DNA of 63,748 nt, filler included, from Folioceros fuciformis (Eukaryota), in assembly GCA_049999805.1 (NCBI GenBank). It is 6 parts of 5 records of this genome, joined end to end, with 100 filler letters (N's around TTAATTAATTAA, not from the genome) between each part and the next. Parts side by side here need not be neighbours in the genome. Positions count along the whole stretch, not along the records: positions 1 to 15,254 come from JBNGIO010005645.1; 5 more parts are not named here. One strand, given 5' to 3'. Below are positions 1-37,616 of this stretch, piece by piece. Positions within the stretch are counted from its first letter, which is position 1, and each line of letters opens with the position of its first letter. The notes beneath the pieces were generated by a model, which saw only the letters and a program-made list of their open reading frames with translations, was not told the DNA's origin and searched no databases. A program made the position numbers and the translations under genes.

Positions 1-2170
1 GTCAGACTGAGGATAATGAAAGGCAACATCAGCAGGAACCATGTCCTTGAGCAATGGCCCTAGTGGAGATAAGTCTCTAGCATTGTGTAGGGTTATTAAA
101 GCCCAATGTGCTTAGACTAATGTGATTAGTCTAATTAAACTAATGTGATTAGTTTAACTAGACTAATGTAATTAGTTTAAGATTAGTGTCTAATTAAGTA
201 TCACTAGTTTAGATTAGCTTAAGCTAATCTTTAGGAAGCTTCCTGCATAGCTTCCTGTGAGCTTCTTGTGAAGCTTCCTTGGGAGCTTTTCTAGAGGGTA
301 TAAATACCCTCTTGAGCTCCCTTTGCAATAGAGCTGTGAGAGGTCTAAGGCTAACCTTGGTTAACTAACCCATGTTGGCTTAATCCCATTAATAGGTGCA
401 GTGACCTCAACCTCTACTGTCTCCGTCAGAACGCGGAGAACCCCTCCGTGGAAGAAAGCGTGGCTATCATCTAGTTGCTGGATGGCGTCCACCACCATTC
501 TCCTGAGAGTCTGGTACTCGAGTCACCACCTTGTCTCTGGCAGGTTGGCGTGCTGAGCGCTAGGGGTGCTAACGTACCTCCGGAGTTCTTCTAATGTGGC
601 GGAGGTGACAATGGTTGACTTTTGGAGGCGTAGGGTAGACATGGCTTATGTCTAAGCCCGAAGTAAGGCCACCTCGCGTTGGTCCTCCTGGGTCTCAAAG
701 TCCGCTAAATTGGCCTATAGCTTCTTCGGTTTAGCCCGGAATCTGTTGATCCGGTCCACTAGTTGCTTGTGTTCCTCTTCCCAGACTTGCCCATGGCTTT
801 GCATGGTTTCACAGGTGCGGGAGAGATCAGCCTTCAGAGCCCGGATTTCCTCTTGAGCGGCCTTCTCCTTTATCTACGTGGTCTGTAGCTTACCGTGCAT
901 CTCCTCCACTTGTCGGACTGCTTTGGTCAGTTTCCTTGAGGCTTCCTTCTCTACCTCGAGGGCCTAGTTGTGCTCCTTTTGGTAGCAATCCTTGGTCCGC
1001 TGTGTGCTACCTGTAGGTGGCTTGAGAGTCCGCCTCCCATTTCTTGCATCCCTGTCGCTCCTCTGCATGAATAGCCTCCATTGTAGCCTGTGACCTCTCA
1101 ATCTCCCCCTGTGCCGCTCCGAGTTGGTTCTCTAGGTTTGTAGTCCGTCCAACCACTTGGGACTTCAGTTCTTCCAACTCTTGTTGGTACCTGCCCCGCT
1201 CCTCTCGATATTTTGAGGACTCCTCTTGCAACTCGGTGGAGTGGCTTCTTGCCTTCTCCTTTAGGGTGGACAACTAAGTGGCTAGCTCAGTCATCCTTCT
1301 TCGGAGGGCGATACTCTCGCCCTCCCATGCTACAACTTGCCCAAAGGATCACGCAAGTCCTTCTGCCACGCTGGTGACAATACCTTGTGCAGCCTGGGTA
1401 GCCCTTATGAGGTGGCTCTGGTGTAGAACCCATAATTAGGAGGTAGCAGGGCCCTCTCAAAAGATGTCCAAATAGCCTTCCGCATGGCTTTTGGGTCTGT
1501 AATTCCCCCTTCAATAAGGTCCTCCAAGACTATAGATTGGAGTAAGGTCCGCCAGCGATCTACCTCCTCCAGAGCCAAGTTGGGAGCCAGTCAGGGAATT
1601 GGAGGAGGTATCACTCTACCGGGTGGTGGGCTTGGAGAGCGAGGACCTCTCCCCTTCTTCCTATCATGAGGTGAAGGCGGGCGCTTAACTCTGGAAGGTC
1701 TGATTCCGTGCCGCTCGTTGTAGTCAAGTTGTGCGGCTAATTTGACCAGCTCCATGCAGTTTGCCTCCCCCCTGGTCCTTCGCGCACCTCCTATTCTGGG
1801 TGTCGAGGCCAAGAAATCTTCTAGCTCCAAAATGGTGGGTGGTGGAGCACTCCGTATTGGGATCTGCTTGCCTGCCATGGACATGGCTAGGATATTTTGT
1901 TGTTTGGGCTATGGCACCCGGACAGAGGGTGCCTCCGCCTTCTGCTTTGGAGGCCAATTGGTCGGGGGGTTGGGAGCTGAGGCCATTGAGGAAGACGCAG
2001 GAGCTACACCGTGGCTATCCTTGAAAGGGCTCCGAGACTGGTAAGGGCACCGCAACTGTAGTCAAAGGATTAGGTAGGGTGGCTGGTACTGGGATCTTCT
2101 TCCTGGGAGCTGGTGGAGGAGTAGGGACGGGAAGGGTCGGGGCCGGAGGTAATCGGGCCAAGGTACATAA
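1..2170 (-). mobile_element. Decayed retroelement-like region: AT-rich LTR-like segment plus a broken coiled-coil / proline-rich ORF
   Basis: Positions ~105-235 hold degenerate short repeats (ctaatgtgattagt) and there is a TATAAATA at ~298. Minus-strand fragments 1007-1273 (coiled-coil-like) and 1591-1884 (Pro/Arg-rich) are interrupted by stops. No diagnostic domain seen. Confidence 0.4.
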
Positions 2171-4653
2171 TTATGAAGGTGTGCTTCCAAAGGTTTTATA
2201 CCTCCAACTAGACAATACATGTAGAGAGAATAATGTTAGACCTCAGGGTTAATTGTAACCACAGGTACTAGTTACCTAGTTACTTAGGTTAGGGTTAGGT
2301 GTATATATAGAAGGGTTATTCATAAGTAACACTTAGGGTTTAGTATTGAAGGACAACTCTTTGTGAACATAATTATTATTCAACATTTTATTATTGACAT
2401 GGTATTAGAGCTCTTTTCTGATATAATTTTATTGTTGCAATGATTTCTATGAGAGAAATCACTATCAAGAAGTGCAAGATAATTTTTAGTTGCAATGATT
2501 TCTATGAGACGAATCACTATTAAGGAGTACAGGATGCGACAATGTGCATAACCTAATATGGCTACCATATGTAGATCCCACACATTATCATTCTATACTT
2601 CTCAATAGTTTCTTTCCTTCATAAAGTTGCAAATCACTCTTTTGTGCCAATTCCACAAATGAGAAATATAGCACATATGTATTTTCTAATCTCCTATAGG
2701 CACGTAAAAACGTTTCCGCTGCACTACTAATTTAGATATGCAAAATACGTCTTTGATGCAAAATGCCTCGTAGGAACAAGAATAGGGAGCCTGGGACGCG
2801 AAGTTTCTTCAACCTTATTACTGATAGGCACAAGAGGGAAAGTGATTGCTAGAGGCGTTCAACACAAATTCCCTCAAATCCTCCAGTAACCAGAACTTCA
2901 CGAGCCGAGCCCAGGCCCGCATGCGCCACACGCCTCTGACTCCTCCAAATTATCCTGACATGGAAGTCAGATTCAGGATACCGCAACAGGACAGACAAAA
3001 CTAACAAAATATTCGTGAGCAAGCATCTAGGCACAACCTCACAGTGGAAGCCTCTCAGCTTCACTTGATTAGTGAGGTGCCTGATGAACCTATTGCTAAC
3101 CTAGGGGACCTTCAAAAGATGCTATACAGGCACACGACCCGCACACAAGCCCTTACAGGGGAAATTTTCCTGGAAATCAATGAGATCAAGGAACAATTGA
3201 GTGCCTTGGTTAAGAGATTTAGTGAGGATCTTGAGATCTGTGATGGCCCCATAGTCGACGGTTATCGCCGCATCATCTTGTGATCTAAGCGGGCATTGCC
3301 CGATCCTTTTGTTTGTCAAATCTGCAATCAAGCAAGGAAAATTCGAAGCGTCGCGAGTAGGGTCTTTTCAAGCTTCTGTGAAAGGACAAGAATCCAAGCG
3401 ACAGGCATCAACTAGAGGATGGGTTTTCAAGCGGCACCTACTTGCCGTTTGGCCTCCCAACTGCTCGCCATCCGACACTTCTGGAATTCCGTCTCCTACC
3501 ATTAGATGCTGATGATGATCTCGGGCCCTTCACTGGAGATCCTGAGTCCGCTGCAAGCGCTGCTCCCGGTGTAGGCGCATCCATGGTCACGGGCGTGTTA
3601 CCAACTTCGAGCTCTCCACCACAAGGAGCGCTCGGCACTTTTATGAGAGTAGCAAGCGCGGCAGGAAATTCAAGAATCAATAGTTCCAGCAATCTTGCAG
3701 GCACATCAGGTCAGAGTAACACTGGCATGTTCAACAATTTTTCCATGAGACCATACTTCACTGGAGCTAGAGCAACTTTCCCTGCTGTTCAAGCATCTGG
3801 TGCCTCATCCTACCCAAGTTTCTCCGCTACACAATATTTCAACCCTATGCCATTCCTCGGGGTGGGATATGGGAATCCTTTGCCTACCCCAGGAGCTGGA
3901 TTCGCCAATCCCCTGCCGGGATATGGAGTCGGGTATGGAAATCCCGTGGGTGGGCAAGGAACAGGGCTTGGACAAGGGCCTATGCCTGGACAAGGGCTGC
4001 CGCCTCCACCCCTGCCAGGCACATTGCTGGCACATCAGGCTGCTCTCTTGCCCTCCTTCTCCACATACCAACCAACCTACAAAATTGAATTTAAGGAACG
4101 TGACAAGTTTAATGGAATGTGTGCAAGTTTAGTGGAGCGTCCACATGCGCGCAGCCCTTGATGCTCGGCATGTGTGGGGCATTGTAAGCGGGCAGTTCCA
4201 ACAACCCGCTATTACTTCTCCTCAACCTGACTAGGACAGATGGGAGAATGCTAATATTGTCGCACGCGCACTCATTATAAGCGGGCTGGATGAGGTGTTA
4301 GTGCTTGATGTGGCCTTCCTCACCAAGGCCGAAGATATCTAAACACAATTGGCACAGACGTACGTTGTTAAGAACGTGCTTACCTGGTGTGCTGTCAGGA
4401 GTGAGCTATTCACTCTGCTCATGCGGGAAGGGGACAAGGTTGCTGCTTTCGTGACAAAGTTCAAACAGCTTCGAGCCAACTTGATCTCTCTATGCTTTCC
4501 AATGCCCGAACTTGATGCAGTTGTACAGCTTCTAACAAGCCTTCCTGCCAACTACCAGTCCTTTGTCACCAGTTATGGTGCCACACTCAGAGATGCTGGT
4601 AAAGCTTCTACAGCAGGACGACCAGTCATGATCAGTTTTGCAGATGTAGTTGG

Positions 4654-4838
4654 TGTTAGGATTAGTCAGTAACTAATCAGTTTAACCTGCTTAGGTTAGA
4701 AATAACCACGGGTCACACCCTTTCGGGTTACTCAATAAACAAAGTACTTTATACAAGTTGCCTAAAACTTTTTATTGTTATTACAACAACAGCATTGTTT
4801 TGCTTTGTCTGTCCAAGCCTTCCGCTGATAAACAAACA
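4654..4838 (+). repeat. 5' LTR of Copia B
   Basis: TG...CA ends, direct repeat of 11212-11396, followed by the tRNA-iMet PBS. Confidence 0.97.
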
Positions 4839-5941
4839 TGGTATCAGAGCCATTGGGCTCTTCGATCCATGCTGCTCTTGTATTTTATCTAGGCTGATTG
4901 CTAGTTTTGATACTGAACCTTTTTGGTGAAGGGTTGTTCAATGTAACTATTTTTGCAGAAAATCTGCACACTAGGCTATGTCAACTTTATTATTTTTCAT
5001 CACACGGTCAGCATTAATAGTCTGCCTATTGACAGGCACTATGTCTGTCTACATTGAGCAGCAGAGATGACGCGTAGATCTAGAAATAGATCTCGTGTGT
5101 CGCTTGAAGGAGTCACAGTTCCCGAAGCACCACGGGATATTTTTAGATTAGGTTGTCTCACTCACTTAAGTTGTCGAGGTGTGTCCCTCAATCTGCGTCG
5201 CCATGCAAGACACACCTATAAATGTCAGCCACAGCAACACAAGGGAAGAGTGCATCAAAATTCATTAGATAAGGAGTTTGTTCACGATCAATCCTATTTA
5301 GGGCTTGAGGACAGGTTGACGGACTTACAGGTCTTGATGCTCCGAGAGAACACTACTCTCAGCCTCAGAGTTGCGTTGCTTATTGACAGACTCACAGCCC
5401 TGACAGATATCGTTGAACAACATACAGAAATTGTTCAGCAGATTGCTCATTTTTTTACAAATACCTGAACGTGATAATTCTGCTGAATCTTCACGATTTG
5501 CACTTTACCTGCCAACGCTGACACCGATCATCATGTCTTCATCACAGGAGCATGATGGTCCTCCCTCAACTATGATCTCTGTCATAGTAAGAAACTCACA
5601 GTTTTTAGCGTTGCTACTCTGTGCGTTTTTCTGGTAGCAAATTGCAAGAGTTACCTTGGTTGTGCGAGACACCGGTTCGTTGAGGATTTGGATCTCAATA
5701 GTTGCGTCTCCACTGGCGCCTGTTGGTAGCAATCTCCAGGTGTCTCTTCCTTTGCAACTCTTCCTATCTGGCTAGCCAACGAACAGTTGTCAGTTCAGGT
5801 TCATGGGACACGTTTTTAGGGTAACGTTTCAATTTTCACCCTAATCAACCCTAAAACCAATGTCTCATACCTTTTCAGTTCTAGGCTGGTGTCCCTTAGC
5901 ACTTAGAGTCATTTGATAGCAAACAGCTATTATAGTATGTT

Positions 5942-8900
5942 ATGTCTTCAGACAGTAACAGTGACTCTGAAGTAGATCTCTTCTCTTGGCTATTTTTGAA
6001 TCCACCTCTACCTTCTATTCCTGTTTCTCCTGCTGTTACCATGGGCAATACAGGAGCAGGATCATCATATAATGGTGAATTTAAAGAGAAAGATCGTTTT
6101 GATGGAAAACAGTCCCAATTTGAATGCTGGCGTGCTCGGATGAAGGCTAACCTCAATGCCCGAGACGTCTGGGAGTATGTTGATGGAACAACTCCTAATC
6201 CTGCTAACACAATTCCAGCAGGATCACCAGAAGCAATTGGAAAATGGAAAAAAGGGAACAAGATCCCTTATGCCATCTTGCTTTCAGGACTTGACGAAGT
6301 CACAGTGACAGAAGTGGATTCCCTCAAAATAGCCGCTGAGGTGTGGACACAACTCACACAAACATACCCAGTAAAGAACATACTTACCTTGGTTGCTACT
6401 AGGAACAATTTTTATGGTCTAAAGTTGAAGGAAGGGGACTTAGTTGGAGCACACGTCACCCAGATGCGCACCCTACGGGCCCAACTGGCCGTGCTAGGAT
6501 GCAAGATGATGGAGTTGGACGTCGTCGCTCAACTTCTAGCCAGCTTGCCTTCCACTTACCAGAATTTTGTTTCAAGTCAAAATGTAGCTCTTCGTGATTC
6601 CTATCAAGCTCTTGCTCTTGGTCAGCCCTCAACTCTCAACTTGAATGAAGTGATAGGGGCGCTCCTGCAAGAGGAGCAAAGTTAGAATCGCCATAAGACA
6701 AATACTCGTCTCAGAGGTGACAAGGTTCTCTATGCTAAAGCAAAGGGACCCTGGAAGGGGAGGGATAAAGGAGGGAAGAAACAATCCAACGATTACTCTT
6801 CCCAACAGTCCTCTTCTACTAGAAGACTTGGCAATTGTAACTGGTGCCAGAATCCAAGCCACTGGGAACGAGATTGTCATAAAAAGAAGTCTTGAGAGCC
6901 TAAGAGGGAGTCTAAGCAGGAGGCACATATTAGTTCTAAGGAACACAAACCAGCTGCTGGATCCACTAGCTCTCAGAAACAAAGTAGCAGTACAGTCCTT
7001 ACTGTATGTCTGACTTCTACAAGAGAGAACTCAACTCGTTGGTTTGTTGACTCGGGAGCAACTGCCCATGTCTGCAACAACCGAGAACTTTTCTCAACCT
7101 TTCACCTGCAAAACACACCACAGTCAGTCTTTGTTGGGGACTCTAGAGGTGTAAAGGTCAAAGGGACCGGTATAGTGCAAATACCTCTGTTAGATGGCTC
7201 ATCCTTGATCCTTGATGATGTCCTCTTTGTTCCTAACATGAGGAAAAACCTGTTGTCAATACGAGTAGTAGCCTAGAGCAGAAAGTATGGTTTTAGGTTT
7301 GAAAATGAAAAATGTTTCATTTACTTACTTGCAGAACCTGAAGGCCACATTGCTAAGGCTGTACTGGTTGATGATTTGTATTGGCTAGTTTTGACTCCCA
7401 AGGTCAAAGGTCAAAGCCCTTCTAGCTGCAGTTCATGCACAGGCCAATCTCTGGCATGCACGTCTTGGTCATATTAACCGTGCTAAGCTTGATTTGATGG
7501 CTAACTCCAGTTGCTACAGAGAGAAGCTTCCTTTCCTGCTTCAAACACTTATCAGCATGTACCTCATGCATACTGTCCAAGCAGAAGGAGCTTCCCTTTA
7601 AGAATAAAACTGCAAATCAGGCCAAGGCTGTGCTGGAATCGATACATGCTGACATTGCTGGGAAGTTACCTGTCAAGTCCTTGGGAGGAGCTGAGTACTA
7701 TCTCACCTTGACTGACGACTTCTCCGACGTGGACTTTCCCTTTAAAGTTGAAAAGTGAGGTTTTTGAAACCATATCTAATTGGATTGTGATGGTTCAAAG
7801 ATAGACTGGACATCTTGTCAAGTGCTTTCGAACAGACAATGGAGGGGAGTTCACTGGACATCAGTTTGATGACCTGTTCACACAGTTTGGCATTGTTTGT
7901 CAACTCTCTGTTCCATACACCCAACAGCAAAACGGTGTTGCAGAGAGGAAAAACCAAACCCTAATGGGAATGGTTAGAAGCATGCTATCTTGGTCAGCTC
8001 TACCTAAGACTAATTGGGCAGAGGCTATTGTGAGTGCTACTTACATTCTTAATAGGGTAGTCACTTCCGCACTTCCTAGTAGAACACCTTACGAAGCTTT
8101 TTGGGGACGAAAACCAAGTCTGTTACATTTGAGGGTCTTCAGGTCACCTGCTTTTGCCTATATACCTGAATCCAAACGGAGAAAGTTAGATGATAGGTCT
8201 AAATCTCTCATTTTCCTTGGTTATTCAGAAGAGTCAAAGGCATACAAGCTTTTTGACCCAGTAACAGCAAAAATAACCTTGTCCAAAAGTGCCACCTTCA
8301 AAGAACTTCTGTCCCCTAGGACAGATCTTCTAGTTGATGATACTCTCTCATCTGAACCTGTTCAAGATAATAATCCTAAACTTGAAGATGGGGATGATCA
8401 ACTGGCCCCTGTGCAGTATCCGTCTTCAGATGGGGCTTCACCTACACAATCAGACATCGATGATGTCTATACTCTTCCTGCTGACAATGATTCTGTTAGT
8501 GATACTTCTGACCTAGGTATTGAGGTCTCTGGTGATGATACATAGTCTCTTGCTTCAATAGACAATAGTGACAATAATGATGTCCTTGACCTTTCTAATC
8601 CTTCTGATGAAGATCGTGTAGCACCTGTGGCAGTGGACTCAGATTCCCCTCTAGATCCTCCCGCTCGTTATCCCATTAGAGACAGACGTCCTAGGGCAGA
8701 GTGGAATGAGGTCCCATACAGCTCAGTTGATTTCAGGAAACATGCTGCCAATATCACTGACCTGCATGTTCCAGAGATCATGCCTGATCCACAGGGTTAC
8801 TCTGAAGCCCTAACTGGACCAGATGGTAAACACTAGCAGGTCTCCATAAACGACGAGTACAATTCGTTGGTCAAAAACCGTACTTGGGAACTTGCAGATC

Positions 8901-10375
8901 TACCTCCTGGAAGAAAGCCTATCACCTGCAAATGGGTTTTTAAAACCAAGTTGAAGTCAAATGGCACAATTGCCCAATACAAGTCCAAACTTGTTGCTAG
9001 AGGGTTTTCACAAATACTTGGGATAGACTATGGAGACACATTCTCCCCTGTGGTCAAGCCTCCTTCAGTCCGAATCTTACTTGCTATGGCAACTGAGTTT
9101 GATTTAAAACTGCACCAGATGGACGTCTGTACAGCGTTTCTTCATGGTGAGCTCGAAGAGGTATTGTTCATGGAACAGGCTGAGGGGTTTGTTGATAAGG
9201 ACAGTCCACACAAAGTATGTAAGCTATTGAAGACCCTGTATGGCCTTAAGCAGAGTCCTCGTGCCTGGTACAAGCGTATTATAACATTCCTGAAGAAACA
9301 TGACTTTGTTTAGTCACCAGCTGACTCAAATGTTTTTAACCTAGTTTCTGGTGACCTGTTTGTCATCTTGGCACTGTACATTGATGATGCCATTTTGCTA
9401 AGCAATAGTATAGCTCAGCTTGATGCAGTCAAGGCCCTTTTACGCTCAAAGTTTGAGATGTCTGATCAGGGCCCCTTACAGTACTGTCTTGGCATCCAGA
9501 TCCTGCGCAACAGGACACAAGGGTCAATAGTCCTTCATCAAACAAAATATTTGAAGGAGATTCTAAAATGCTTTAATATGGATGCTGCTAAGTCAGTCTT
9601 GACGCCATCAGTAGTGGGGGAAAAACTTACCAAAGAACAATCTCCACTTCCTGGTGATGATCACCTTACAATGTCTACTTTGCCATATGCTAAAGTCGTC
9701 GGCTGTCTGATCTTTCTGGCTAACTGGATACGTCCAGACATATCTTACTCTGTCAGTATAGTGTCCCAGTTTCTGCAAAACCCTAGCAAAGCCCACTGGT
9801 CAGCAGTTAAGCGCATCTATAGATACCGAACAGGTACTCTTAATTATGGTCTGCACTATGTAGCTAGTGGATAGAAACAGTTCTTACTCACAGCATTCGC
9901 AGATGCTGATTGGGCATCTGATACTGACTCTCGTAGGAGCCTCTCAGCATATGTTTTCCTACTGGCTACAGGAGCTGTGAACTGGTTCTGTAAAAAGCAA
10001 ACCTCCTTGGCACTGTCGTCCACTGAGGCTAAGTACAAAGCCTTGACAAATGCATGCAAGGAGTTAGAGTGGGAGAGACAATTCCTGGAAGCAATCCACT
10101 TACCTCAGACTGGCCCCACTACTCTGCTATGCGACAATATGTCTGCTATAGCACTTGTTCGAAACCCGAGGTTCCATGCCAGGACCAAACACATCAAACT
10201 TTATCACCATTATGTTCGTGATGTAGCTGAAAGGGGCATAGTCAGAGTTCAGTATGTCAGTACCAATGAAAATATTGCTGACATCTTTACCAAGGGTCTG
10301 TCCAAGGAGAAGCACTTCAAACACCTAGAAGCTCTTGGGCTGAGGGCATTTACTATGCCCGTTACGAGCCCCTGA
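5942..10375 (+). pseudogene. gag-pol of Copia B with stops and frameshifts
   Basis: gag 5942-6685, integrase 7964-8545, RT (QMDVCTAFLHG, LYIDD) 8867-9874, RNase H (CDNMSA, RTKHI, ADIFTK) 9977-10375. Confidence 0.95.
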
Positions 10376-10579
10376 CCTACCTAGTTCTATCCACATGGAG
10401 ACAGTTTACAAGCCAGCTTGCTCAGTTCGGGTCCTGCTGCTTGCACAACTACAGGACTTGCCTTACTGTCTCCCGTTCACAAGTAGGACAACAGTGAGGT
10501 GCTTTCAGTCGATGAAACCTCAGTTCAAAATCCAGTCGTGAGAGCATCACATGCTAGAATTCTATGGTAGTTGGCAAGT

Positions 10580-10942
10580 TTACCTTTCACTTGTTGCCGA
10601 GTGAAGGATATATCCATGTGCCTTGAGCTCCCGCATCACCGCACTGTACTCTGCAGGCGTCAAGGGATGCGACAGTTCGTCCTTTGCAGGTGTCATAGCC
10701 AGTAGCGCTTCTAGCTCTTTTGCTTTCTTCTTTGCAGACGCGAGGAGGTCTTCCAGTTCGTTGCACTTCTCTAGCACCCTGATCTGATGCCACAGCAGTT
10801 CCATATCAGCTTTGGTTGGCCACCATCGCTTTCCTATCACAGAGGGAGCTGACGAAGTTGGAAGCTGTTTGGATGGTGGGGGTCTTAGGCGCTCGATGCT
10901 GCTACTGCCTATCTCCAGAGAGTCGAAGCTGCTGCAGGCCAT
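10580..10942 (-). CDS. Antisense accessory ORF in the 3' region of Copia B (coiled-coil-like, unknown function)
   Basis: 120-aa ATG-started open frame between the pol stop and the PPT. It ends at a donor-like AG|GTAAAC (10583), so it may be a first exon. Confidence 0.55.
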   Translation of the reverse strand: MACSSFDSLEIGSSSIERLRPPPSKQLPTSSAPSVIGKRWWPTKADMELLWHQIRVLEKCNELEDLLASAKKKAKELEALLAMTPAKDELSHPLTPAEYSAVMRELKAHGYILHSATSER

Positions 10943-11211
10943 GCTGAAGGTGTGAGTGGCGATGGTGGCAACGCACTGCCACGATTGGTAGTGCCAAGTG
11001 ATGCTGCTGCTAAGTGCCGAGTCACCCTTTTGTAGCTTGGAAGATCAGAAGGACACAGGTTGTGATCACAATCAACGCCACGACACAAGAAGATATCGTG
11101 ACAACTAATGGCGGCAACTGAAGTACCTCCACGAGGAAACGCAGTGCTAGCTAGAGCTCGTGCGAGTAGTCCTTCAGTCCTTATTTTTAACCATCGCAGG
11201 TTAAGAGGGAG

Positions 11212-11396
11212 TGTTAGGATTAGTCGGTAACTAATCAGTTTAACCTGCTTAGGTTAGAAATAACCAAGGGTCACACCCTTTCGGGTTACTCAACAAACAA
11301 AGTACTTTATACAAGTTGCCTAAAACTTTTTATTATTATTACAACAATAGCATTGTTTTGCTTTGTCTGTCCAAGCCTTTCGCTGATAAACAAACA
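11212..11396 (+). repeat. 3' LTR of Copia B
   Basis: Direct repeat of 4654-4838, preceded by the PPT and followed by the TSD. Confidence 0.97.
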
Positions 11397-12380
11397 GTTG
11401 GCGCCCTCTTCCAGGAAGAGCAGTCCCATCAATCCCATTCCAACTCTAGTCGCATCAAAATTGACAAAGTACTTTCTACAACTAAATTTAAACCACAAGG
11501 CAGAGGCAAACACTTATTTGTAGCTGGGTCTTTGAAAGAGTCAAGGCCAAGACAGATCAAAAGGTAAGGCTCCTGCAACTGGTGTGGTTCTCTCTGTCAC
11601 TGGGAACGAGAGTGTAGGAAGAAGAAATCTGGATAACCCAAAAAGGCCAAGAAAATTAACCTTTGAGGCTCATGCAGTTTTCAAGGACAAACCGACAAAG
11701 GCCCCTTCAACTGGCAAGCAACCTATGGTATTGACTATTTGCCTATCTGCAGCTTCCAGGCTTGACGATGCCTGGTATCTTGATTCAAGAGCAACAGCAC
11801 ACATTTGCCATAACAGAAAATTGATGAGTAACTTCACTCTTCACATAGCTGAAAACGTTCTTCAGGGAGATGAACTCACTGGGACAGGTCTGAAAATTCT
11901 TGGTCGTGGCACTTGCTCCTTCCGACAGTCGAATGGCCAGATTTTCCAGATTGATAATGTCCTCTTTGTACCTGACATGCCCAAGCACTTACTCTCTGTT
12001 AGCCAGTTGATGCAGCTCAAGACTTTAGAGCTTAAATTCACTGCTACTGGATGCACACTTAGCGAGTCTAAATCCTCCTCTGTTGTTTCTCAGGGCTTCC
12101 TTGTTCAAGATCTATACAGGCTAGACATGCAATGTCTCCCTGTTAAAAGCGTCCATCTTGTTGCTCGGTCACAGGCTACTTTAGCACAACTGTGGCATGC
12201 CCGTCTAGGTCATGCTAATAAGGATAAGTTGGTCAAAATGTCCAACTTGGAATATTATCAGGAGCCTCTTCCTAAGTGCTTCCAAGACCTTCCTCTTTGC
12301 GATGCATGAATAGTGGCCAAGTAGAAAGAGTTACCTTTTCCTACTACTCTAGCTCATAGGTCTTCTGCTATATTGGACCT

Positions 12381-15254
12381 TGAGTAAATATGGAAATTGG
12401 TGTAGACCAATTGCTATAAAACAATTACATTATTATATTGATTAAACAATAATTATATACAGCATAGACAAATAACTAAACTTAAGCTAGGTAGGGTGAA
12501 TAGACACACCCTTTCATAAAGGACGTAACCCAAATGAACGGGCACCTAGACTTATAGTAGCTATGAACGCATTCACCAAACGAAACCTAATGTATTAACA
12601 CCCTATTCTCATCACTCCCACTTGTTAATCATTATGGGGTCAGTTTGCCTCCCCTCCACTACGTTCAGAGTTGTGGAGACTGTGACTCCAGCTGAGAACC
12701 TCACGATCCTTGTGTGTACTTTGGGGCGTAGGCTCAAGGTGGCGCTGCTGTGTGTGAAGGCGACCGTCTACAGGTTCGCACTTCTTGTAGCTGCTATTTA
12801 CGTCCCATGCCTTCTGGCAATAAAGCTCGTTGAGCGAAGGCTGAGGAAAGTAACAATGGCGTCTCCAGGGTCTGATGATGCTCTAGCAGCCAAGGGGCGC
12901 AGATACCAGCGGGACTCTGCAGGAAGGTTCATCACATCGCCTATGGCTAGAACAACTGCCATCGGAGCACGGGCAGAAGAGCATCAACTTGCACAGCAGC
13001 CAGAGACACACACACGAGGAGGAGGAGCTAGCGGCGTTAGGAGACCGCGGGGGCGGCCGCGAGGCACTACCAGAGCAAGCTTGAGCCAGTGGCGTGACAT
13101 CGCGACATCCGGACTCTCCGTCTCCCCTCCAAGCTTTCGACTTTCCAGCATCAGAGGTGGGAAGACTGCTGGCCAGATTACAGCAACTCCAGCAACACTT
13201 TCTTCAGGCGCTGTGGATGCGGGCAAAGGTTTAGGCACAGCACGAGGGAGGACGGCGGCTAGGACTGCCGAATCTTCGAGAGCCGGGGCTATGGGCGGCC
13301 TATCCAGGAGCCGCATTCCTGAGCTCGTGTACTCACGGGCTGTTGTGGAACAGAGGCGCTTCAATCGAGGTGAGTTCAAGTACGAAGGTGTTGACCAACG
13401 TCCTCCAGTTCCACCCAGATTTCCAGTTCCAAGCAACGTCATGTCAGAGACCAAGGTGATCACACCTGGTACTTGGGAAGTGTCGGGCAGCCCGCTGTGG
13501 TACAAGTGCCAAGTTTCTGGCATCACCATGAAGAGAGTGAGGGTTGAAATGTTTTTGGAGTGTAAAGGCCACATGATCAGCTTCTACAGTAAGCCTCTTG
13601 CTGATGGTAGCTTGTGGCATAATTGTTTCCTAACCCCCTGCTGATTATCATCACTTGTCTGACTTTGCTCCCACTGTCTCCTCACAGGGTCTGAAGAGCG
13701 ACTGGAGGAGGAGCAAAGCTTGGAATCTAAGGACAGAATCTCCTACAAGGAGAGGAAGAAGAGACAGTCTCCTCGTTCGGAGAATGAAGTCTTTTCCTCT
13801 GACACTGTGGAATATGCTTCATGGGAGAAGCTTGGTGATTCCACCACCTCAGAGAGTAGGGGTTCTTTTAAATCTCCTCCTGGAGATTCAGACAATGATG
13901 ATAGTCATGATTGGGGTTATGAATAGCCTGCTAGGCTAGGGCTTAGACATGGCAGTGGGATTGCCTTCATGCCTTCCCATGCCAAGTACTCTCATGTGTT
14001 TTTCATGTAGCTCCCTTCCTAGGGGCTTGGTTAAAATGTCTGTTGGATTTTCAGACGTAGGCACATATTCAAGGCTGATATCTCCAGACTTGATGAGGTC
14101 ACGTATAAAGTGATACTCAACTTCCACATGTTTAGTCCTGGAGTGAAAAACAGGATTATGTGCCAAGCTCATTGACCCTTGGTTATTTGTGTGGATTGTG
14201 GTGCAGGCTGGAAGGGGAATTCCAAGTTCCTTGAACATCAGCTTGCACCAAGCTATCTCCTTCGCAGCAGCTGTAAGTACCCGATATTCTGCTTCAGTGC
14301 TAGATAGGGCTACAGTAGGCTGTTTCTTGCTAGACCAGCAAATGGGTCCTCCAGCCAACATAACCAGAAATTGATTTCCTTGTGTCTATATCTCCAGCAT
14401 AGTCTGAATCAGTATAGACATCAAGATGTAAGGGCACTCCAGGTATGTGCTTGTATTTTACACCAATGCTGTGAGTTCCTTTCAGATACCTGAAAACTCT
14501 CTTAACACCTGTCCAGTGTGTTTGCCTTGGGTTTTCCAGATACTGTGATAAGACACTAGTAGCATAAGCTACTTCTGGCCTAGTGGTGTTAGCTGCATAT
14601 ATGAGTTTGCCTACAGCTTGTCTGTAAGGGACTAAACTCATCTTCATTTTTTCTAATTGTGTATCAGGACACATGGTTTTACTCATCTTCAGTCCACAAG
14701 GCAAAGGAGTTGTAGAAGGTTTAGCATCCTTCAATCCAAGTTGTTCCGCACTACTAAGAAGGTAATGTGGCTGTGTTAATGAGATAGTTCTCTTCGTTTG
14801 TCACGCTGAATTAGAGTACCAAGACAGCTCTGTAAGGCACCTAAGTGTGTCATTTCAAATTTGGTTGATAATAGCTTGTTCATGTCTTTGATGAAGGTGG
14901 GACTGTTACAAGCCAATATGAGGTCATCAACGTATACTGCCAGGTAACAAACCACTTCATTTGTCTTGTATACATATAGGCTCCCATCTGAGACACATCT
15001 GACAAAGCCTAACGCTCGCAGCTCTTCATCCAGGACAACATTCCATTCAAGAGTTGATTGTTTTAGATCATACAGGGTCTTGATTAAACGTAAGACATAA
15101 TCTTCTTTTCCTTTCACCTCGTATCCTTGTGGCTGTTGCATGTAAATTTATGTATCCAGCTTTCCATGTAAGAAGGCTGTCTTTACATCAAACATGTCCA
15201 ACTCATAATCATTGTGTGCTGCCAATGCACAGATAGTGCGAAATGTGGCCAGCT
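12381..15254 (-). mobile_element. Ty1/Copia element C (3' part, cut by contig end), inserted in the integrase of A
   Basis: 3' LTR 12381-12600 with a purine tract (minus strand ATGAGAATAGGG, 12601-12612). RNase H 13936-14361 and RT (YVDD) 14330-15254 on the minus strand. Confidence 0.9.
12856..13926 (+). CDS. Predicted spliced antisense accessory gene of Copia C (~323 aa, AT-hook, acidic tail)
   Basis: Exon 1 12856-13588, intron 13589-13687 (GTAAGC...CTGAC...pyrimidine tract-CAG, phase 1), exon 2 13688-13926 joins in frame. RRPRGRPRG at 13039-13065. Confidence 0.7.
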
Positions 15255-15354
15255 NNNNNNNNNNNNNNNNNNNNNNNNNNNNNNNNNNNNNNNNNNNNTT
15301 AATTAATTAANNNNNNNNNNNNNNNNNNNNNNNNNNNNNNNNNNNNNNNNNNNN
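15255..15354. other. Artificial contig linker
   Basis: N44-TTAATTAATTAA-N44, stop codons in all six frames, identical at five sites. Confidence 0.98.
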
Positions 15355-18300
15355 TGGGCTCACACCGAGAGTGTGAGCCCAACCAAATGATCATGACTCA
15401 AAGAGGCAAGTCCGCACCAGAATCGTTGACGTCAGCCATGACCGCCATGCTAAACCGTGGAGATGGAGATGGAGGCCGCTAGTCGTTGAAGTCGCACCAA
15501 GGGAGAGTGCCTGACGCTATCTTAGAAACTCAATTACTTTTGTTGTTCCAGCCATATTTGGGCTCAAGAGTTGTAAGGATTGATGTTCTTTATATCTTGC
15601 TGCAGCACCTGGTGTGATTTACCCGACTCCAAGCTGCCTGGCATAGGCAGCCTGTCAATCAAGTTCTTCCAACAAAACTGTCCAGAAATCTGCGTGTGAG
15701 CAGATTCCATGTCACTTCGACGACTAGCTGCAAGACCTGAGTGCGACTGGGCTTAGAAGAGGTGGTGACGCACCTACAGCAAGGCGCCATCCTCCCCGTC
15801 TTGCCAGCCGCCAGCTGCAACGTTGACTTAACAAGTTTAGGGTTACCAACCTTCTAGGGCTCATAGCGCCCGCATTACAGATTGGTTGCCATTGATTCTT
15901 ACATCATTTGACTCGTCTTTTCAAGGCGAGCAGTTTGGTATGCTTTGTGTGCGATTTGGAGCCCTATCTAGGGACTGACTGCATTTGAAAGTTTCGGACA
16001 ACAGGGTTTTGCTCTTGCTGCATTTGTTTTGATTTTCGATATGGCATCGCGAGTGAGCAAGGCCGCGTGCTGCAATCTTCACATGTGAGCTGGAGTTTTG
16101 CTGTGCTGTGTTCCTAAATCCTATGGCAGACATGGGGAATTGTGGGTGTTGTAGCATGATCAGATCTAGAGTAGTTGTGCTTTTCTGTTTTGTGCTGGGG
16201 AGGCATCTAGGGTTCTCTAACAGTGTGCTTGCATGCCACCTCTTGCTGAGAATTGGTTGTTTGTGTGTGAGTTGTTGCATGGGTTATGCAACCCGAGGAG
16301 CCTGAAGGCAGCCCACGTTATCACTTGCGATCGAGGAACGTCCCTGCTAGGGTTACACCGCAGCGTGGACAAGCCAGGAGGAGGAGAGTTGCATGTCAGC
16401 GACGTTTGTCTTGGGAGGAAGCGGTCCACGAGGACCATCAAGCTGGCCCAAGTGCTGTACACCAGCAACAACCAGAGATCGAGAGTTGGTCTCCGTTTGT
16501 GGGCTGGACAGCCACAACTGCCCCCACAGTTCCTTTGGGAAGCTAAGGAGCTGGTTTCAATTGTCCTGTAGTCATACCTTCGAGGTCAGGGTCTTAAGGT
16601 CGGGCAGACCTCTCTGAGGATTCAGATATTGGATCCATGGAGGGAGGAGCACCTTACAAGCAAGAGCAATTCTCCGGGAGACCAGGGACACAAACTTTGC
16701 GGGATTTCAGACTGCACCTCATTGCTGTCATCAGTTGGGTAAAATTCAAGCATGCTGGAGCTTACAACCATTTGTATATGTTCGAGCAGCTTTCAAGTTA
16801 TCTGACAGATGAAGCTCTGGACCTTTATGAGCTGCATCAGGCTGAGCTCACAACCATGGTGTCCATGCCTAATCCAAGGTTCCAGGAGGCTCTTCAGCTA
16901 GCTTACAATGCCAAGTTGGTTGCAGCCATTCAGGGCCATCAGCAGGCCATTGTTGCAACCACGATGGAACCAACAGTGCCACCCCCAACGGTCATAACTC
17001 TTACACCAGATGAAAGGATAGCAGCCACTATGGGCATACCCGATGAGCTACAGGTTCCTCAGTATGCCAACCCCGTCGAAGAATTCATGGGCATTCTGGA
17101 GAAAGCCTTCCCATTGAAGACTCCGAAGAAAATTGCAGAGCTGGCATCTTTTGCTAGGAAGAAGGGAGAAACCGTGCAGATGGCGTTCCGTAGATTGCAG
17201 AAGCTACGTGAGGGCACAGGGATGCTAATGGACCAGGAGGCAGCGGAGAAATTCCTAACAGCCTTGGAAGGAGACCCACTCTTTCACTTTCAGCTCATCA
17301 CACCGTTGGTGGATAAATATGGTGATAGGTATACCTTGGAGCAAGTACATGAAGAAGCTGAACGCAGGGAGATCGCTTTCTCTGCATATGCTTCACGACA
17401 CTCCAAGGCATTTACTCATTACTAGTCTATGTTCTCCACAAAGGGGTCTACTGCAACAGGTTCATGGGCCAAGTCACAGCAAGCCAAGCATGTCAAGGCT
17501 GGAGCAGCTGCAGCTACAGTTGCTTCTTTGTGCAACTACTGTGGCAATTCTGAGCATATGAGCCCAGCCTGCAAATGCCCAGCGGAAGGCTTGTACTGTA
17601 CACATTGTCACAAGAATGGACATGTGGTCACAGTATGTTTTCAGAAGCATCCGGAGAGAAGATCTCAGAAAAATGCAAGTAGTGGGACAGGGACTGCAGC
17701 AACCGATGCAGGAGGTACAACTACCATAGAAGCTAGTATTAGTGTTGGGGTCTCACGCAGCCGACAGCAAAGGGACAAGGCCAAAGCTAAGGCTGCATCC
17801 AATGCAGAGAAGGTATCTGCCCTAGAAGTCATTGTTGCAACGTTATCTTCACAGCTGGGCGCGCTTACAGCCAGTCTCAGTAGTGGAGCAACCTCACCCA
17901 AACCAACCAGTGTTGCTGAACTAGTCAGAGACAAGGAGGAGGATTACGGCTCACCACATCAGGTGTGTGTTGCCAACTAGATGGAGGCTGAGATGACAAC
18001 TGCTGAGTTGCCACACACGTGGGTAGGGCAACATTTATACCCACCAGTGTTGGAGACAGCAGCAGGGCCAGTCACTCAGCAGCGAGGAGCGAGGGCGGTC
18101 ATGCCCCAGTCTTTTGCACCACTGTCACCATGAAGTGCAATCCTAGTCCGAGGGCAAGAGCATTCCACATTGGCAGGAGGGCCACAGACAGTAGACAAGC
18201 CTCCACCACAACCACAGGTGTCAGCTAGTGGGCCAGTCTACTTGATGCCCAGGGCCTTCACTGTGGAACAATTATCTGAGAAACTGATTGGCATTCCTCT

Positions 18301-19644
18301 ATTCTCTTTGCAAGACATGGGGCTAGGACATGAGCGTTTGCCCAAGGAATTGCAACCAGCGCAAGCAGCTGTATTGTCTTCAGGAGCGTCATGCTGGCCA
18401 CTAGCAAATTTGCACATCGCACAGCACAGGGACACTCTTAGGTATGCCTATACCAGGAGCGGAAGTTTCAGGCCCAAACTTAAGAAGTTCCAATTTGGGG
18501 ACTTTGTGTATTTGCAGCAACAGATTGGTGATACACTAGACACCAGCACTAGCCGCCATGTGCTGCGGATCAGGGAAGTGAGACCTAACGGCGTGCTGCT
18601 TCTATAGGGGGCAGATGGCAGGACTATTATAGATCACACCAAGAATTGTGCCGCGTGCCACCTACCCAACTTGGACCCCACCATTGTCACAGCCAATTGG
18701 GTCCCTCTGGAGGATTACCCTTGCCAGGTGCGTCGCAGGGTAGATGATGCAGAGCTCATGCTCCTCTGTGATGGATGCAATGGCGGATTCCATTTGTTTT
18801 GCTTGGATCCGCCGCTGACTGAGGTACCTGAACAGTTATGGTATTGCCCCCAGTGTGCTGTTCCTATAGCTAGCTAAGGGCATGAGTACTCGGCGTGGAC
18901 GAGCCCTTTCTTTTTGCCAGGCATTCTCATCAGCTGGGGGGGGGGATGGGGGTTCCACATTTTCCCAGTGCTCAGCACCTTGCGTGATGCTAGACTTCTT
19001 ACCACTTTCTTTGGTATGTGCTGTGTTATTCAACTAATGCTCCTGGCTAGAGGTTGCCACACTTATCACCAGCTTGACCATCTGCTGTGTGCCTCGCATG
19101 ACAGCTGTCACGATACCAAAGGTGAGCTTAAGGTTGAGTAAGCAGCGTGAAACAATTATCCTTTTAAATAAGGATTAGTTTAGGATAATGCTATTTAAAT
19201 GTTGGCAATTAGCAAATGCTAAATGGTAATTAGTAAACACCAAAAGCTAGAGAACGTGGATTAGGGCATGCTTGCAGCTGCCCTGCTGAAACCCGTGGGC
19301 TCACACTGAGAGCGTGAGCCCGACCAAATGATCATGACTCAAAGAGACAAGCCCGCACCAGAATCGCTGGCGTCAGCCATGCTAAACCGTGGAGATGGAG
19401 GGGAGGCCGCTAGTCGTCGAAGTCGCACCAAGGGAGAGTGCCTGACGCTATCTTAGAAACTCAATTGCTTTTGTTATTCCAGCCATATTTGGGCTCAAGA
19501 GTTGTAAGGATTGATGTTCTTCGTATCTCGCTGCAGCACCTGGTGTGATTTACCCGACTCCAAGCTGCCTGGCATAGGCAACCTGTCTATCAAGTTCTTC
19601 CAACAAAACTGTCCAGAAATCTGCGTGTGAGTAGATTCCATGTC
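15355..19644 (+). mobile_element. Internally deleted Ty3/Gypsy-like element: gag, integrase C-terminus and PHD finger
   Basis: gag-like ORF 16637-17980 with knuckles CNYCGNSEH..C and CTHCHKNGH..C. Integrase tail LANLHIAQHRDTLRYA...VLRIREVRPNGVLLL from ~18400. PHD 18671-18877. G-tract 18936-18952. Terminal direct repeat 15355-15713 ~ 19297-19644. No PR, RT or RH. Confidence 0.8.
18671..18877 (+). pseudogene. PHD finger at the end of the retroelement integrase tail
   Basis: CQVRRRVDDAELMLLCDGCNGGFHLFCLDPPLTEVPEQLWYCPQC matches the C4HC3 pattern, with the second Cys mutated to Arg (TGT>CGT). Confidence 0.9.
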
Positions 19645-28448: not shown

Positions 28449-28548
28449 NNNNNNNNNNNNNNNNNNNNNNNNNNNNNNNNNNNNNNNNNNNNTTAATTAA
28501 TTAANNNNNNNNNNNNNNNNNNNNNNNNNNNNNNNNNNNNNNNNNNNN
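28449..28548. other. Artificial contig linker
   Basis: N44-TTAATTAATTAA-N44. Confidence 0.98.
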
Positions 28549-31500: not shown

Positions 31501-34200
31501 AACTCTGCTCCCCACTTGAGGGGAGGAAGATTGTCACATCCAAGTGGGTGTTTAAATTGAAATACAAAGCAGATGGGAGCATCACCACGTACAAAGCTCG
31601 CCTCGTTGCTCGTGTTTTTTCCCAAGTCCTAGGCCTGGACTATCACGATACTTTTTCACCAGTTGTCAAGTTTCAGTCTCTTCGAGTGTGGTTCTCCATG
31701 TCTGCTTTCTATGGGCTGCACATCCATCATATGGATGTCAAGACCGCCTTCTTGCATGGTAAGTTAGAAGAGGAAATATTCATGCAGCAGCCAAAGGGAT
31801 TTGAAGTTGCAGGAAAAGAAAGCTGGGTTTGTAAGTTATTGAAGAGCATTTACGGTCTGAAGCAAAGTCCACGTGCTTGGTATCAGTGTATCGATGAGTT
31901 TCTCCTTGGACTTGGCTTTCTAAAGGGCACTGCAAATACTTATGTGTACTTCCTGCAAGAGCAAACGTGCTATGTTATTCTGGCTCTATATGTGGACGAC
32001 TGTATTCTGCTTGGAACCAACCTAGAGGGAATCACCAGAGTTAAGGCCTTGTTGTCAAGTCGGTTTGATATGGTCGACGTTGGGGAGATGTCTTATTGTC
32101 TTGGCACTCAACTCCAACGTGACCCCGCAAACATGACACTGATCATACATCAAGAGAAGTATATCTACGACATGCTGTTCAAGTACAAGTTGTTAGATGC
32201 CAAGCCTTCACTTACCCCTTTGGAGACAGGGTGTAAACTTACCAGTTCTCAGTCCCCTGAAGGAGATGCTGAGAAAGCTGAGATGGAGCTGGTTCCTTAT
32301 CCTCAAGCTATCGGCTTTCTTATCTTCTGCTCTAACAATAGTAGCCTGATGTAGCTCTCCCGGTTAGTATGGTTTCTCAGCATTTGAAACGACCTGGAAG
32401 AGTGCATTGGACAGCAGTGAAAAGGATACTTTGATATCTTAAGGGAACCAGTGGACATGGAATACATTACACAAAACGAGGCCATGATGAGGAAGAGCTT
32501 ACCCTTGTTGGACTCTATGATGTAGACTGGGCAGCAGACCCAGACACTAGGAGGTCTATCTTTGCCTATGGCTTTTTGCTTGCAGGTGGAGCTGTGACCT
32601 AGTCTTCTAAAAAGCAATCAATAGTGTCACTGTCTTCCAGAGGCGGAGTACTTAGCCCTAACTGAAGCAGCAAAAGAGGCTATGTGGCTGCGAAGGCTAC
32701 TCACGAATTTAGGTCAGCCACAAAACAATCCAACTGTGATATATTGTGACAATCAGTCAGCCTTAGCCCTAGCACAAAATCCAGTCTTCCATGCAAGAAC
32801 CAAACATATTGAAGTACACCATCACTTTGTGATACATGCGATGGAAACTAAATAGGTAAGGCTAGAGTATATTCCTACAAAGTCAAAAGCAGCAGATCTC
32901 CTTACCAAGTCCCTACCTAGGCTGAAGCACTATCAATTCAAAGAAGCGTTGGGAGTCTTAGGCCCACTTCACACAGCCAACAAGTCCAGCAATAAGTGAG
33001 AAGAGTGGCCGTGAGGCTGACAAAACTAGTGCCAAGAGGAAGTCTACTCTATTCACTCTCCATAGTCCGACCTTTTTCCTTCAGAACTCTCTTGAGTTCG
33101 ATGTGGAAGGAGAATTGAGCTCTGTCTTTTCATCAGCTCTGTTCCTGGTATTAGGGTCGTAGTTGTGTTCCTCGCCACTTGTGATGTCATCTTCCCCTTC
33201 ACGTTGAACGTAGCCAGCCTCATCTGCCATCTTCTCCCAAGACACTGTATCATGAAGTAGGTTGTTTAGCAACAGGCCATACCACAACAACAATGGGACA
33301 ATAATCAAGGCAAGCTGTAGGTTAACTGTTTTTACCATAGCTCGATATGAAGTTTCCCTCGTGTCCGCCCCATCTCCACCAGTTCTCCTTGAACATACAG
33401 ATGTTAGTTGTTGGGCAGGTGTAGACTTCAGGAGTTTTAGGGTCGTTTACACCATTTTCGTCTGTGATGACTCGTCTGCGTAGAGTCGGGTGTCCCAGCG
33501 GCAGCTTATACTCCTTAGCCTGGAAGTCAGTTGGCACAACAACATCATCTAAGCCCTCAGTTAGCTGTTCCCTTCTTGTCCTACCCAAAGGAATGTTTAG
33601 AGAGACTCTTCGAGAGGTGGTCACACTTTTTCGTCTCAAGCTGTCTATCTCCTTGGTCAAAGCCTCTTCTCGCTTCTTCGCTATCACCAGTAAGTCCTGC
33701 CAGTACTTGGTTGCTCCCCTGTCAATGACTTTGTATGGAGGCTCCCCTTCAGGCTGGACTGGACAGGGAGGAGCATGGAGAGGAGGACAGGTGCAAATTT
33801 GACGCGCCATAGCAAGAACACCGAGTGTCCCAGCAGACATGAAGCGAGGTGGTGGGCGCACAACAGGCGGTGACGGCTCCTTGTTGATGCTGTGAGGATC
33901 GTTGCTGTCTTCTCTATCAGATGATGATAAATCAATAGGCGCAGCCCGTGTTCAAGCCATGGCGGTGACCCTCGAAGCGTGAATGAGGAGCTTCTCAGCT
34001 GGAGACTAAGTAGAGACTGAGGAGCGCACATCGAAGACTGATCTTAAGTTCAGCTTGCTTTAGGTTTTATCTGTATACCCAATGAGAGGGGGTGTTGCAG
34101 ATAATTACGATATATAATACTTTTGTTATGCATTATGTTATACCTAAAACGAAAGGGTAAACCCTAAATACAGTTATGTAACCGTTTCACGGGTACAGCC
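28549..34200 (+). mobile_element. Ty1/Copia element D (5' end lost at contig edge), decayed
   Basis: gag with RGG tract and knuckle 28549-29580, protease WFLDSGA, integrase 29983-30815, RT (YVDD) 31362-32354, RNase H to 32999. PPT ATGAGAGGGGG 34082-34092, 3' LTR starts at 34093 (end uncertain). Confidence 0.92.
33081..33960 (-). pseudogene. Predicted spliced antisense accessory gene of Copia D, with one premature stop at codon 3
   Basis: ATG at 33960 in CACCGCC-ATG-G context. Codon 3 is TGA (likely from CGA), then the frame is open to 33336. Intron 33335-33245 (GTAAAA...GCTAAAC...CAG, phase 1). Exon 2 33244-33081 is in frame. Confidence 0.65.
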
Positions 34201-36707: not shown

Positions 36708-37616
36708 CTAATCTGTTTTCGGCAAAAGCAAAAAGCCTGAATAGGGTTGCAGGGCAGAGCAAGGAGATAGAGAACATTCATTTTTCCTCTCCATGTTTGT
36801 GCGCAGGCACATCCTTTCAATCACCTTGCCAAGCAAACACTTTTCTTGAAGCCATCAGTGGAAATGTCTGCTTTGGCTAGGAAGGTCTAATTTGCAAATA
36901 CACCTAAGTGTACATGTATAATGTGTTTTTAAAAAAACCAAGAGGGAGATAATGCATTCGCTTTGGCATAGTCTCTCTTTGATTTGGTTTGGTTCTTTGC
37001 CACGAAATATAAAATTGGTTCTTTGCCAAAGCGGAAAAAAAAAGAGAGTAGGAATGGGGATGAATATGCTCTAGATACCCATGACAAAGAAATAATATAA
37101 TATTAGCAGAGAGAGATTTACCACTTTGGCATGCCATATGTAAGCCGTTTCTCATGTGTTTTTATTTGTCATTCACATTTGATCAATTTGCATCCGTTAA
37201 GGTGCAAAACCTTTGCCCTTCAGAAAAAGCAGTGTGGGTTACATTGGGAACGTGAAATCAGCAGTTTGAGTCGTCGGAACATCCACGTGAAATCTCCGTA
37301 TATCAAGTGCAATCGTAATTCTGACAGTAAAGGATGCAACCCCTTTGCGACAATCCTCTGGTACCTACAATTACCAACGCGTGGTGATGCAATTCAATGG
37401 CAGTTGTAAACAGCTGCCGCTCACCTGACTGGACGGAAGCGAGGGAGCCTTCGAGGAATGCAGCTTCCTTAGCTTGTGTTGGGAAAGCTAGCCCCTCTCC
37501 TCCTTGAACTGGACAAGGCTGACAGGGATCTTACACGGAAGGAATTGGGCAAGAGCTCTTGTGGCCCCTGACAGCTAGTTGTCGAAGCCACCAATCCCCA
37601 CCAAACCATCTACCTT

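Follow-up and report, generated by a model that had tools for sequence, protein, structure and literature searches.

A candidate spliced antisense open reading frame between pol and the 3' long terminal repeat of a Copia retrotransposon in Folioceros fuciformis

Introduction

Does a Ty1/Copia retrotransposon of a land plant carry a spliced gene on the strand opposite to its own pol? The question is raised by a frame at positions 12856-13926 of a 63,748-nucleotide (nt) stretch of DNA, filler included, from Folioceros fuciformis (GenBank assembly GCA_049999805.1). This stretch, which is here called the window, was joined from six parts of five records; the frame lies in the first part (JBNGIO010005645.1, positions 1-15254), within an element that we refer to as Copia element C. 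An earlier note on the locus had described an antisense accessory gene with one intron, situated between the 3' long terminal repeat (LTR) and pol of this element, and had proposed that its product is a chromatin-binding factor transcribed from the LTR.

Almost all antisense accessory genes described so far in plant retrotransposons are those of Gypsy elements (Tat/Retand). As far as excerpts of PMC7264820 and PMC11963269 go, the Gypsy elements Grande, RIRE2, Retand and PvRetro13 have antisense open reading frames (ORFs) between pol and the 3' LTR, most of them without known domains. In the same excerpts, the Grande ORF is driven by a promoter of its own and gives a nuclear product, a TRP28 domain is found in 97% of Retand clusters, and the Gypsy antisense ORFs are likened to retroviral antisense genes such as HBZ. 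A spliced antisense ORF within Copia would be new, the antisense kind being known mainly from Gypsy. We favor, with moderate confidence, the reading that the frame in element C is a lineage-specific antisense additional ORF (of the "aORF-3R" type) of a low-copy land-plant Ty1/Copia subfamily.

Exon-intron structure of the frame

The frame was read on the + strand as two exons separated by a predicted intron, as follows.

12856..13588, + strand: exon 1, 733 nt, equal to 244 codons and 1 base, with the ATG at 12856-12858 in the context AACAATGGC.
13589..13687, + strand: predicted phase-1 intron of 99 nt, GTAAGC...CTGAC...CAG.
13688..13926, + strand: exon 2, 79 codons including the split codon, followed by the stop TAG at 13924-13926.

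All parts of what the earlier note had observed at 12856-13926 were confirmed from the sequence. Its two-exon antisense ORF, with a 99-nt phase-1 intron and 323 codons after joining of exons 1 and 2, was borne out by the coordinates and the translation; the intron is in phase 1 because exon 1 is 733 nt long. The 9-bp gap between the two stops was also found, the stop of the + strand ORF sitting 9 nt from the minus-strand pol stop at 13936-13938, such that the two frames are convergent. The donor of the intron reads ACA/GTAAGC, the CTGAC lies at 13659-13663 and the acceptor reads ...CTCCTCACAG/GG. The sequence around the ATG fits the plant start consensus. The evidence for the ORF consists of genomic DNA sequence. 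None of the sequencing runs listed as containing the segment is an RNA run, and neither X4, the one run that may be RNA, nor X6 yielded a contig over the ORF, an outcome that counts neither for nor against expression.

The length of the frame was compared with that of frames in shuffled DNA. The open + strand frame inside 12641-13935 is 333 codons long, and none of 3000 dinucleotide-preserving shuffles of that segment matched it in any of the six frames. The longest frame in the shuffles averaged 122 codons with a maximum of 319, and 0.17% of the shuffles reached 244.

Restoration of the frame by an intron is by itself weak evidence, since 675 GT..AG pairs in this region would keep the frame open. 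Pairs with a GTRAG donor, at least 12 pyrimidines out of 15 and a YAG acceptor, placed 60-200 nt apart, occur only 47 times in the 63.7-kb window when both strands are counted (127.5 kb). By our own arithmetic, the expected number that also have the correct phase and a donor within the final 54 nt of the frame is about 0.007. In the predicted intron, the branch-like CTGAC lies 25 nt ahead of the AG, and pyrimidines make up 12 of the 15 bases preceding the CAG. It is T-rich (35% T, with a GC content of 47.5%; that of exon 1 is 57%), a shift in composition that is typical for plant introns.

A codon log-odds score was trained on 4806 codons of the recognizable genes of the window, and the training ORFs themselves scored 0.11-0.21. 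Exon 2 scored 0.232, which was the top value of the six frames and as high as those of the known window genes, and the intron scored -0.082. Together, these data indicated that the two-exon frame is beyond chance and statistically non-random.

The Copia element that carries the frame

The features of element C, all of which lie on the minus strand, are as follows.

12401..12642, - strand: 3' LTR of Copia element C, 242 bp, with TG...CA ends and TATATAA at 12459-12453.
12643..12660, - strand: polypurine tract (PPT) AGTGGAGGGGAGGCAAAC, directly upstream of the LTR.
13936..15254, - strand: Copia pol, from the reverse transcriptase (RVT_2) to RNase H and a natural C-terminus, in three frames.

The LTR, the PPT and the RVT_2 match upheld the placement of the antisense frame between the PPT/3' LTR and the stop of a Copia pol. 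Its position, on the opposite strand between the pol stop and the PPT/3' LTR, is that of the aORF-3R type, and the C-terminal part of pol has the Copia order of an RVT_2-type reverse transcriptase followed by RNase H. The borders of the LTR were marked by other copies, which diverge from the window near 12396 and 12638, and two other contigs with loose ends at 12638 have a similar pyrimidine run on the + strand. The internal region between pol and the PPT/3' LTR is 1.27 kb long, and a search of 12200-14100 with Rfam and for tandem repeats found nothing.

The pol gene was assigned by a match to PF07727 RVT_2 with an expectation value (E) of 2e-22. The RNase H piece was 77% identical to its closest relative, a Logan-derived protein (P0003) with which it shares an equal C-terminal length, and 44-53% identical to Copia polyproteins of ferns, liverworts and a moss, its nearest named relatives. 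The pol of the remaining three Copia elements of the window was only 35-46% identical to that of element C. Among pol relatives with flanking sequence, the sole metagenome locus (L001, 52% over 46 residues) was without any ORF of 100 codons.

As the earlier note had stated, the pol of element C is frameshifted, with its three frames at 14776-15147, 14330-14800 and 13936-14385. Contigs from an independent sample showed small length differences near both frame changes, and at these points decay and an allelic or assembly difference are indistinguishable. Pol is interrupted at 15255 by a block of Ns, where the 5' part of the element is lost. No second LTR and no second copy of 12300-15254 were found within the window, and the element has one LTR there and no pair. 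Past 12401 lies a different, + strand Copia fragment with gag, a protease barrel and a pre-integrase domain at 11536-12309; because the integrase-coding part of that fragment adjoins 12401, element C is taken to be inserted into it. The window copy is a dead, truncated element, and any function would belong to the family and not to this locus.

Copies of the ORF region and a putative promoter

The ORF region was also found in contigs from other sequence data. Contigs of one independent DNA sample (X1 and X2), aligned at 80% likeness, contained 12923-13979 with 15 substitutions in 1057 nt and no length differences. A paralogous contig of 1357 nt, at about single-copy depth, followed the window colinearly between about 12587 and about 13980. 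Its alignable blocks correspond to 12790-12876, 12946-12979, 13339-13505 and 13594-13776 and were 83-85% alike where measured (29 differences in 167 positions for 13339-13505; 27 differences and 3 gap letters in 183 for 13594-13776), and the stretches between the blocks were less than 80% alike. The layout of LTR edge, ORF region and pol end therefore occurs twice, about 16% diverged. The colinearity of this diverged paralog indicates that the ORF region belongs to a small Copia subfamily and not to flanking host DNA.

A possible promoter was located upstream of exon 1.

12794..12800, + strand: TATA-like CTATTTA, a putative internal promoter 56 nt before the ATG.

The proposal in the earlier note that the gene is transcribed from the 3' LTR was not supported, as the sole upstream block that is conserved in the paralog (12790-12876, at least 80% alike) is internal. 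The CTATTTA sits in this block, 148 nt outside the LTR. A transcription start about 30 nt past it would also skip a short upstream ATG at 12807.

Based on these features, we speculate that the antisense gene of the subfamily would work as follows. Transcription of the + strand would start from the internal TATA-like promoter near 12794-12800, and not necessarily from the LTR. The 99-nt intron would survive retrotransposition, as the genomic RNA is of the opposite strand and could not splice it. At its 3' end the ORF mRNA would run into the coding region of pol, its untranslated part being antisense to pol because the two stops are 9 nt apart, and the ORF and pol RNAs, if made, overlap. The product would be a largely disordered protein, basic and then acidic, containing a single AT-hook-like motif as well as an RKKR patch. 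If Grande gene23 and the retroviral antisense genes are a guide, it would be nuclear and act on the expression of the element itself, and the convergent transcript could additionally pair with the genomic RNA, at the 3' end of the latter, into double-stranded RNA.

The predicted protein

A count of charge and composition agreed with the basic N-terminal part and acidic tail that the earlier note had described. Residues 1-160 carry a net charge of +15 and are rich in A, G, R and S, residues 161-244 are of mixed composition, and residues 245-323, which correspond to exon 2, are rich in S, E and D with a net charge of -8 and contain the RKKR basic patch along with the acidic tail. One short motif was recognized in the N-terminal part.

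13039..13065, + strand: RRPRGRPRG, an AT-hook-like motif at residues 62-70, matched by eye to the AT-hook core.

An AT-hook is defined by an R-G-R-P core between basic residues. The motif is present in a single copy in the predicted protein and was not matched by Pfam AT_hook, a search in which short motifs are often filtered out. It lies in 12980-13338, which does not align at 80% in the paralog. The DNA that encodes it is a GC-rich, near-palindromic stretch (13036-13060) that gives PRGRPRG in translation of either strand. For the chromatin-binding or anti-silencing role that the earlier note had put forward, nothing in the predicted protein speaks in favor beyond this single short motif.

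Evidence against an antisense gene and alternative explanations

Several observations count against an antisense gene of a Copia subfamily, and we gather them here. The first concern the copies. At 80% likeness the ORF region occurs in just two versions (depths of about 54 and 58), and the LTR and pol exceed the ORF region about 4-10-fold in depth, with values of 217-376 at 12399-12695, about 120-620 over pol (one bin 2252) and about 54 over most of the ORF, contig depth being a poor proxy for copy number. In the paralog, 128 other letters stand where the window has 13506-13593, a segment that includes the donor and the final 27 codons of exon 1, and within block 13594-13776 conservation is not visibly lower in the intron than in the exon. 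Among the best-supported differences, which leave 327 further ones aside, 14 were substitutions in the ORF; 11 of these were nonsynonymous and 3 synonymous (pN/pS 1.18), and they fell on codon positions 1, 2 and 3 in the numbers 5, 6 and 3, without an excess at third positions.

The remaining contrary observations concern the protein. With exon 1 (P0001) as the query, a full HMMER search of 1.84 billion representative proteins found no relatives, a word-based search found none among 1748 candidates, and there were no matches among Protein Data Bank sequences, among 518 pattern matches in metagenome contigs or among 36 in viral contigs; the ESM Atlas likewise gave no usable match. Neither exon matched a Pfam family, even at an E of 10. 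The ESM recognition score of exon 1 was 1460, and 91 of 100 known-family proteins reach 2300. The structure check that the earlier note had suggested, run with AlphaFold2 on the single sequence of exon 1, gave no confident fold (mean predicted local distance difference test score 39). The codon score of exon 1 was just 0.064, which tied with that of the opposite-strand frame (0.051) and was under that of every training ORF. In addition, no significant similarity linked the frame of element C with the antisense frames of two other Copia elements in the window, which are described below, or linked those two frames with one another.

We considered whether the frame could be a captured or subfamily-specific piece of an orphan host gene, intron included, that came to lie in antisense and has no role in the life cycle of the element. 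In such a case an ORF region in two versions only, with several-fold more LTR and pol, would be expected, since additional ORFs in one or few copies fit transduction, and an excerpt of PMC7264820 links few-copy extra ORFs to gene capture. The retained intron and the good start context also resemble those of an ordinary nuclear gene. We nevertheless regard capture as improbable, as the full HMMER search with exon 1 found no donor gene or homolog in representatives that included plant proteomes, classical RNA transduction would give sense, intron-less inserts, and the layout has been kept in two copies that are about 16% diverged. The listed substitution pattern is neutral, which argues against a constrained host gene; it reveals little about the active element should both sequences be alleles of a single dead insertion.

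That same neutral pattern is also what a second alternative would predict, in which no protein is made, the segment is a non-coding GC-rich spacer or a decayed former gene, and at most its antisense RNA matters. The orphan sequence without a confident fold, the tied codon score of exon 1 and the about equal conservation of intron and exon in the paralog are all consistent with it, as is the unusually open state of both strands. We find this explanation doubtful because such a frame was not produced by any of the 3000 shuffles, because an intron of high quality extends the frame exactly, and because the codon score of exon 2 is the best of six frames.

A third alternative concerns a frame on the other strand.

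12984..13583, - strand: 199-codon open frame that overlaps exon 1, with coinciding third codon positions.

That this frame is a real extra gene on the pol strand, and the + strand frame its shadow, is very improbable: it has an ATG at codon 4, a codon score in its first part about equal to that of the + frame (0.088 vs 0.078), and a precedent in the sense ORFs that follow pol in Copia (Sireviruses; excerpt of PMC7264820), but it is far shorter (199 codons vs 364 stop-to-stop or 323 spliced for the + frame), at least 200 codons are reached in 1.4% of shuffles, its core part scores -0.023 vs 0.037 for the + frame, and neither a Pfam family nor a homolog was found for it. The 199-codon frame is probably a shadow of the + frame, as would be expected of frames that share third positions where the frame is poor in Tyr, His and Gln.

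Comparison with other transposable elements

Read as an antisense additional ORF of a Copia subfamily, the frame is alike in position and in its opposite orientation to those of maize Grande (gene23), rice RIRE2, Silene Retand (TRP28) and Phaseolus PvRetro13. Gypsy aORF-3Rs mostly show no similarity to known proteins and are suspected of a nuclear or DNA-binding role, as here (excerpts of PMC7264820 and PMC11963269). A promoter of its own has been shown for Grande, whereas in element C one is suggested by the sequence. The pol-to-LTR regions of Gypsy Tat/Retand elements are 2.9-6.6 kb long, in contrast to the 1.27 kb of element C, and neither of our exons matched TRP28 (Transposase_28, PF04195) or SMC. 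An intron, as predicted here, is not among the features described for Gypsy additional ORFs in the excerpts of PMC7264820 and PMC11963269. The Gypsy ORFs occur in most copies, whereas the ORF region here is found in two versions, as judged from contig depth, which is a poor copy count.

The env-like ORF of Sireviruses is also an extra frame between pol and the 3' LTR of Copia; those ORFs are in sense orientation (excerpt of PMC7264820), whereas the long frame of element C is antisense. The analogy that the earlier note drew to VANC of VANDAL (Mutator-like) DNA transposons is a likeness in concept only, that of a transposable element-borne accessory protein acting on chromatin. The carrier of VANC is Mutator-like and of a different class of transposable element, whereas here it is Copia, and no sequence or family match was found. 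HBZ of human T-cell leukemia virus type 1 (HTLV-1) likewise lies opposite the gag-pol strand at the 3' end of a reverse-transcribing element, and it has a spliced form that starts in the 3' LTR. Unlike HBZ, the frame of element C has no bZIP or other domain, its promoter seems internal, and in place of an infectious retrovirus its carrier is a plant retrotransposon known from DNA.

Full-text literature searches, with subscription journals and supplements outside their scope, turned up no spliced antisense ORF in Copia, and to this extent the claim of novelty in the earlier note stood. Additional ORFs as such, however, are said to have been catalogued for Copia: an excerpt of PMC11728184, citing another source, states that almost 4000 extra ORFs were found bioinformatically in plant Copia and Gypsy elements.

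Antisense frames of other Copia elements and neighboring features

Two further, unrelated Copia elements of the window have an open frame in antisense orientation immediately after pol.

10580-11044, - strand: antisense frame of 154 codons after the pol of a + strand Copia (pol end near 10375); 2.4% of 2000 shuffles reach it.
33322-33951, - strand: antisense frame of 209 codons after the pol of a + strand Copia (pol end at about 32957); 0.25% of 2000 shuffles reach it.

These elements and element C (A, B and C) are all the Copia elements of the window with a readable pol end and downstream sequence, and each has an antisense open frame there. Neither the 154-codon nor the 209-codon frame matched a Pfam family, and the frame of element B had no match in the ESM Atlas. 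BLASTP among the antisense frames gave E values that were all above 0.005 at lax settings. The top Smith-Waterman score, obtained against a fourth frame, had a z of 2.6, and 1.8% of 500 shuffles scored at least as high. No LTR was recognizable in element B, and the parallel between the antisense frames is for that reason only a lead. In a wider and, in our view, rather unlikely reading, antisense genes that evolve fast and lie directly after pol would be a routine feature of the Copia elements in this non-seed-type land plant, with promoters of their own and, at least in the present case, an intron.

Two candidates were rejected in these comparisons. One was a pattern of "RPPP ... charged helix" that seemed to be shared by the frames of A, B and C, for which Smith-Waterman z values were -0.5 to 0.9 and within the range of the shuffles. 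The other was an accessory ORF at 61842-62435 (- strand) after the fourth Copia, which is the gag of another element.

The window contains several other repeats and genes. Next to the block of Ns that cuts element C is an element at 15471-19644 with 243-bp direct repeats (96% alike), which on its + strand has a gag-like ORF, a CCHC zinc knuckle and a PHD finger (PF00628, E 2e-12, 18608-18877); a second copy, 77-78% similar, begins at about 19960. A pair of 186-bp direct repeats, at 4653-4838 and 11211-11396, is 96.8% alike. Behind the second repeat come a gag and protease (11536-12309) that are only about 34% identical to those behind the first, and for this reason the repeats may not represent the LTR pair of a single simple element. 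The N blocks, at 15255-15354, 28449-28548, 43725-43824, 57320-57419 and 61798-61897, each consist of 44 N, 12 bases and 44 N, and they cut several elements. Tandem arrays with units of 123 nt and 63 nt lie at 44260-44628 and 46274-46650, respectively, with 97-98% identity between central copies, and were left unannotated by the searches made here.

An intron-less gene of 1074 codons at 37572-40796 (+ strand) encodes a PLS-class pentatricopeptide repeat protein with an E motif, in which 312-nt periodic repeats at 38121-40177 represent the P-L-S triplets; this gene indicates that the window is land-plant nuclear DNA. A frame of 1087 codons at 49034-52297 (- strand), with a weak S-layer-homology match (E 2.5e-4) and a C-terminal half resembling a coiled coil, is probably a host gene.

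Conclusions

Were the frame merely captured or decayed, it would be an ordinary by-product of the turnover of transposable elements. If it is instead an antisense additional ORF of a Copia subfamily, it would provide a small and tractable case, with a 323-residue protein and a 99-nt intron that is a built-in marker of antisense expression, and it could allow the action of the protein to be separated from that of convergent transcription. A spliced case in Copia outside the flowering plants would mean that the strategy of encoding an antisense gene arose repeatedly. If antisense genes after pol prove to be routine in these elements, they would be a plant Copia counterpart of the retroviral antisense genes.

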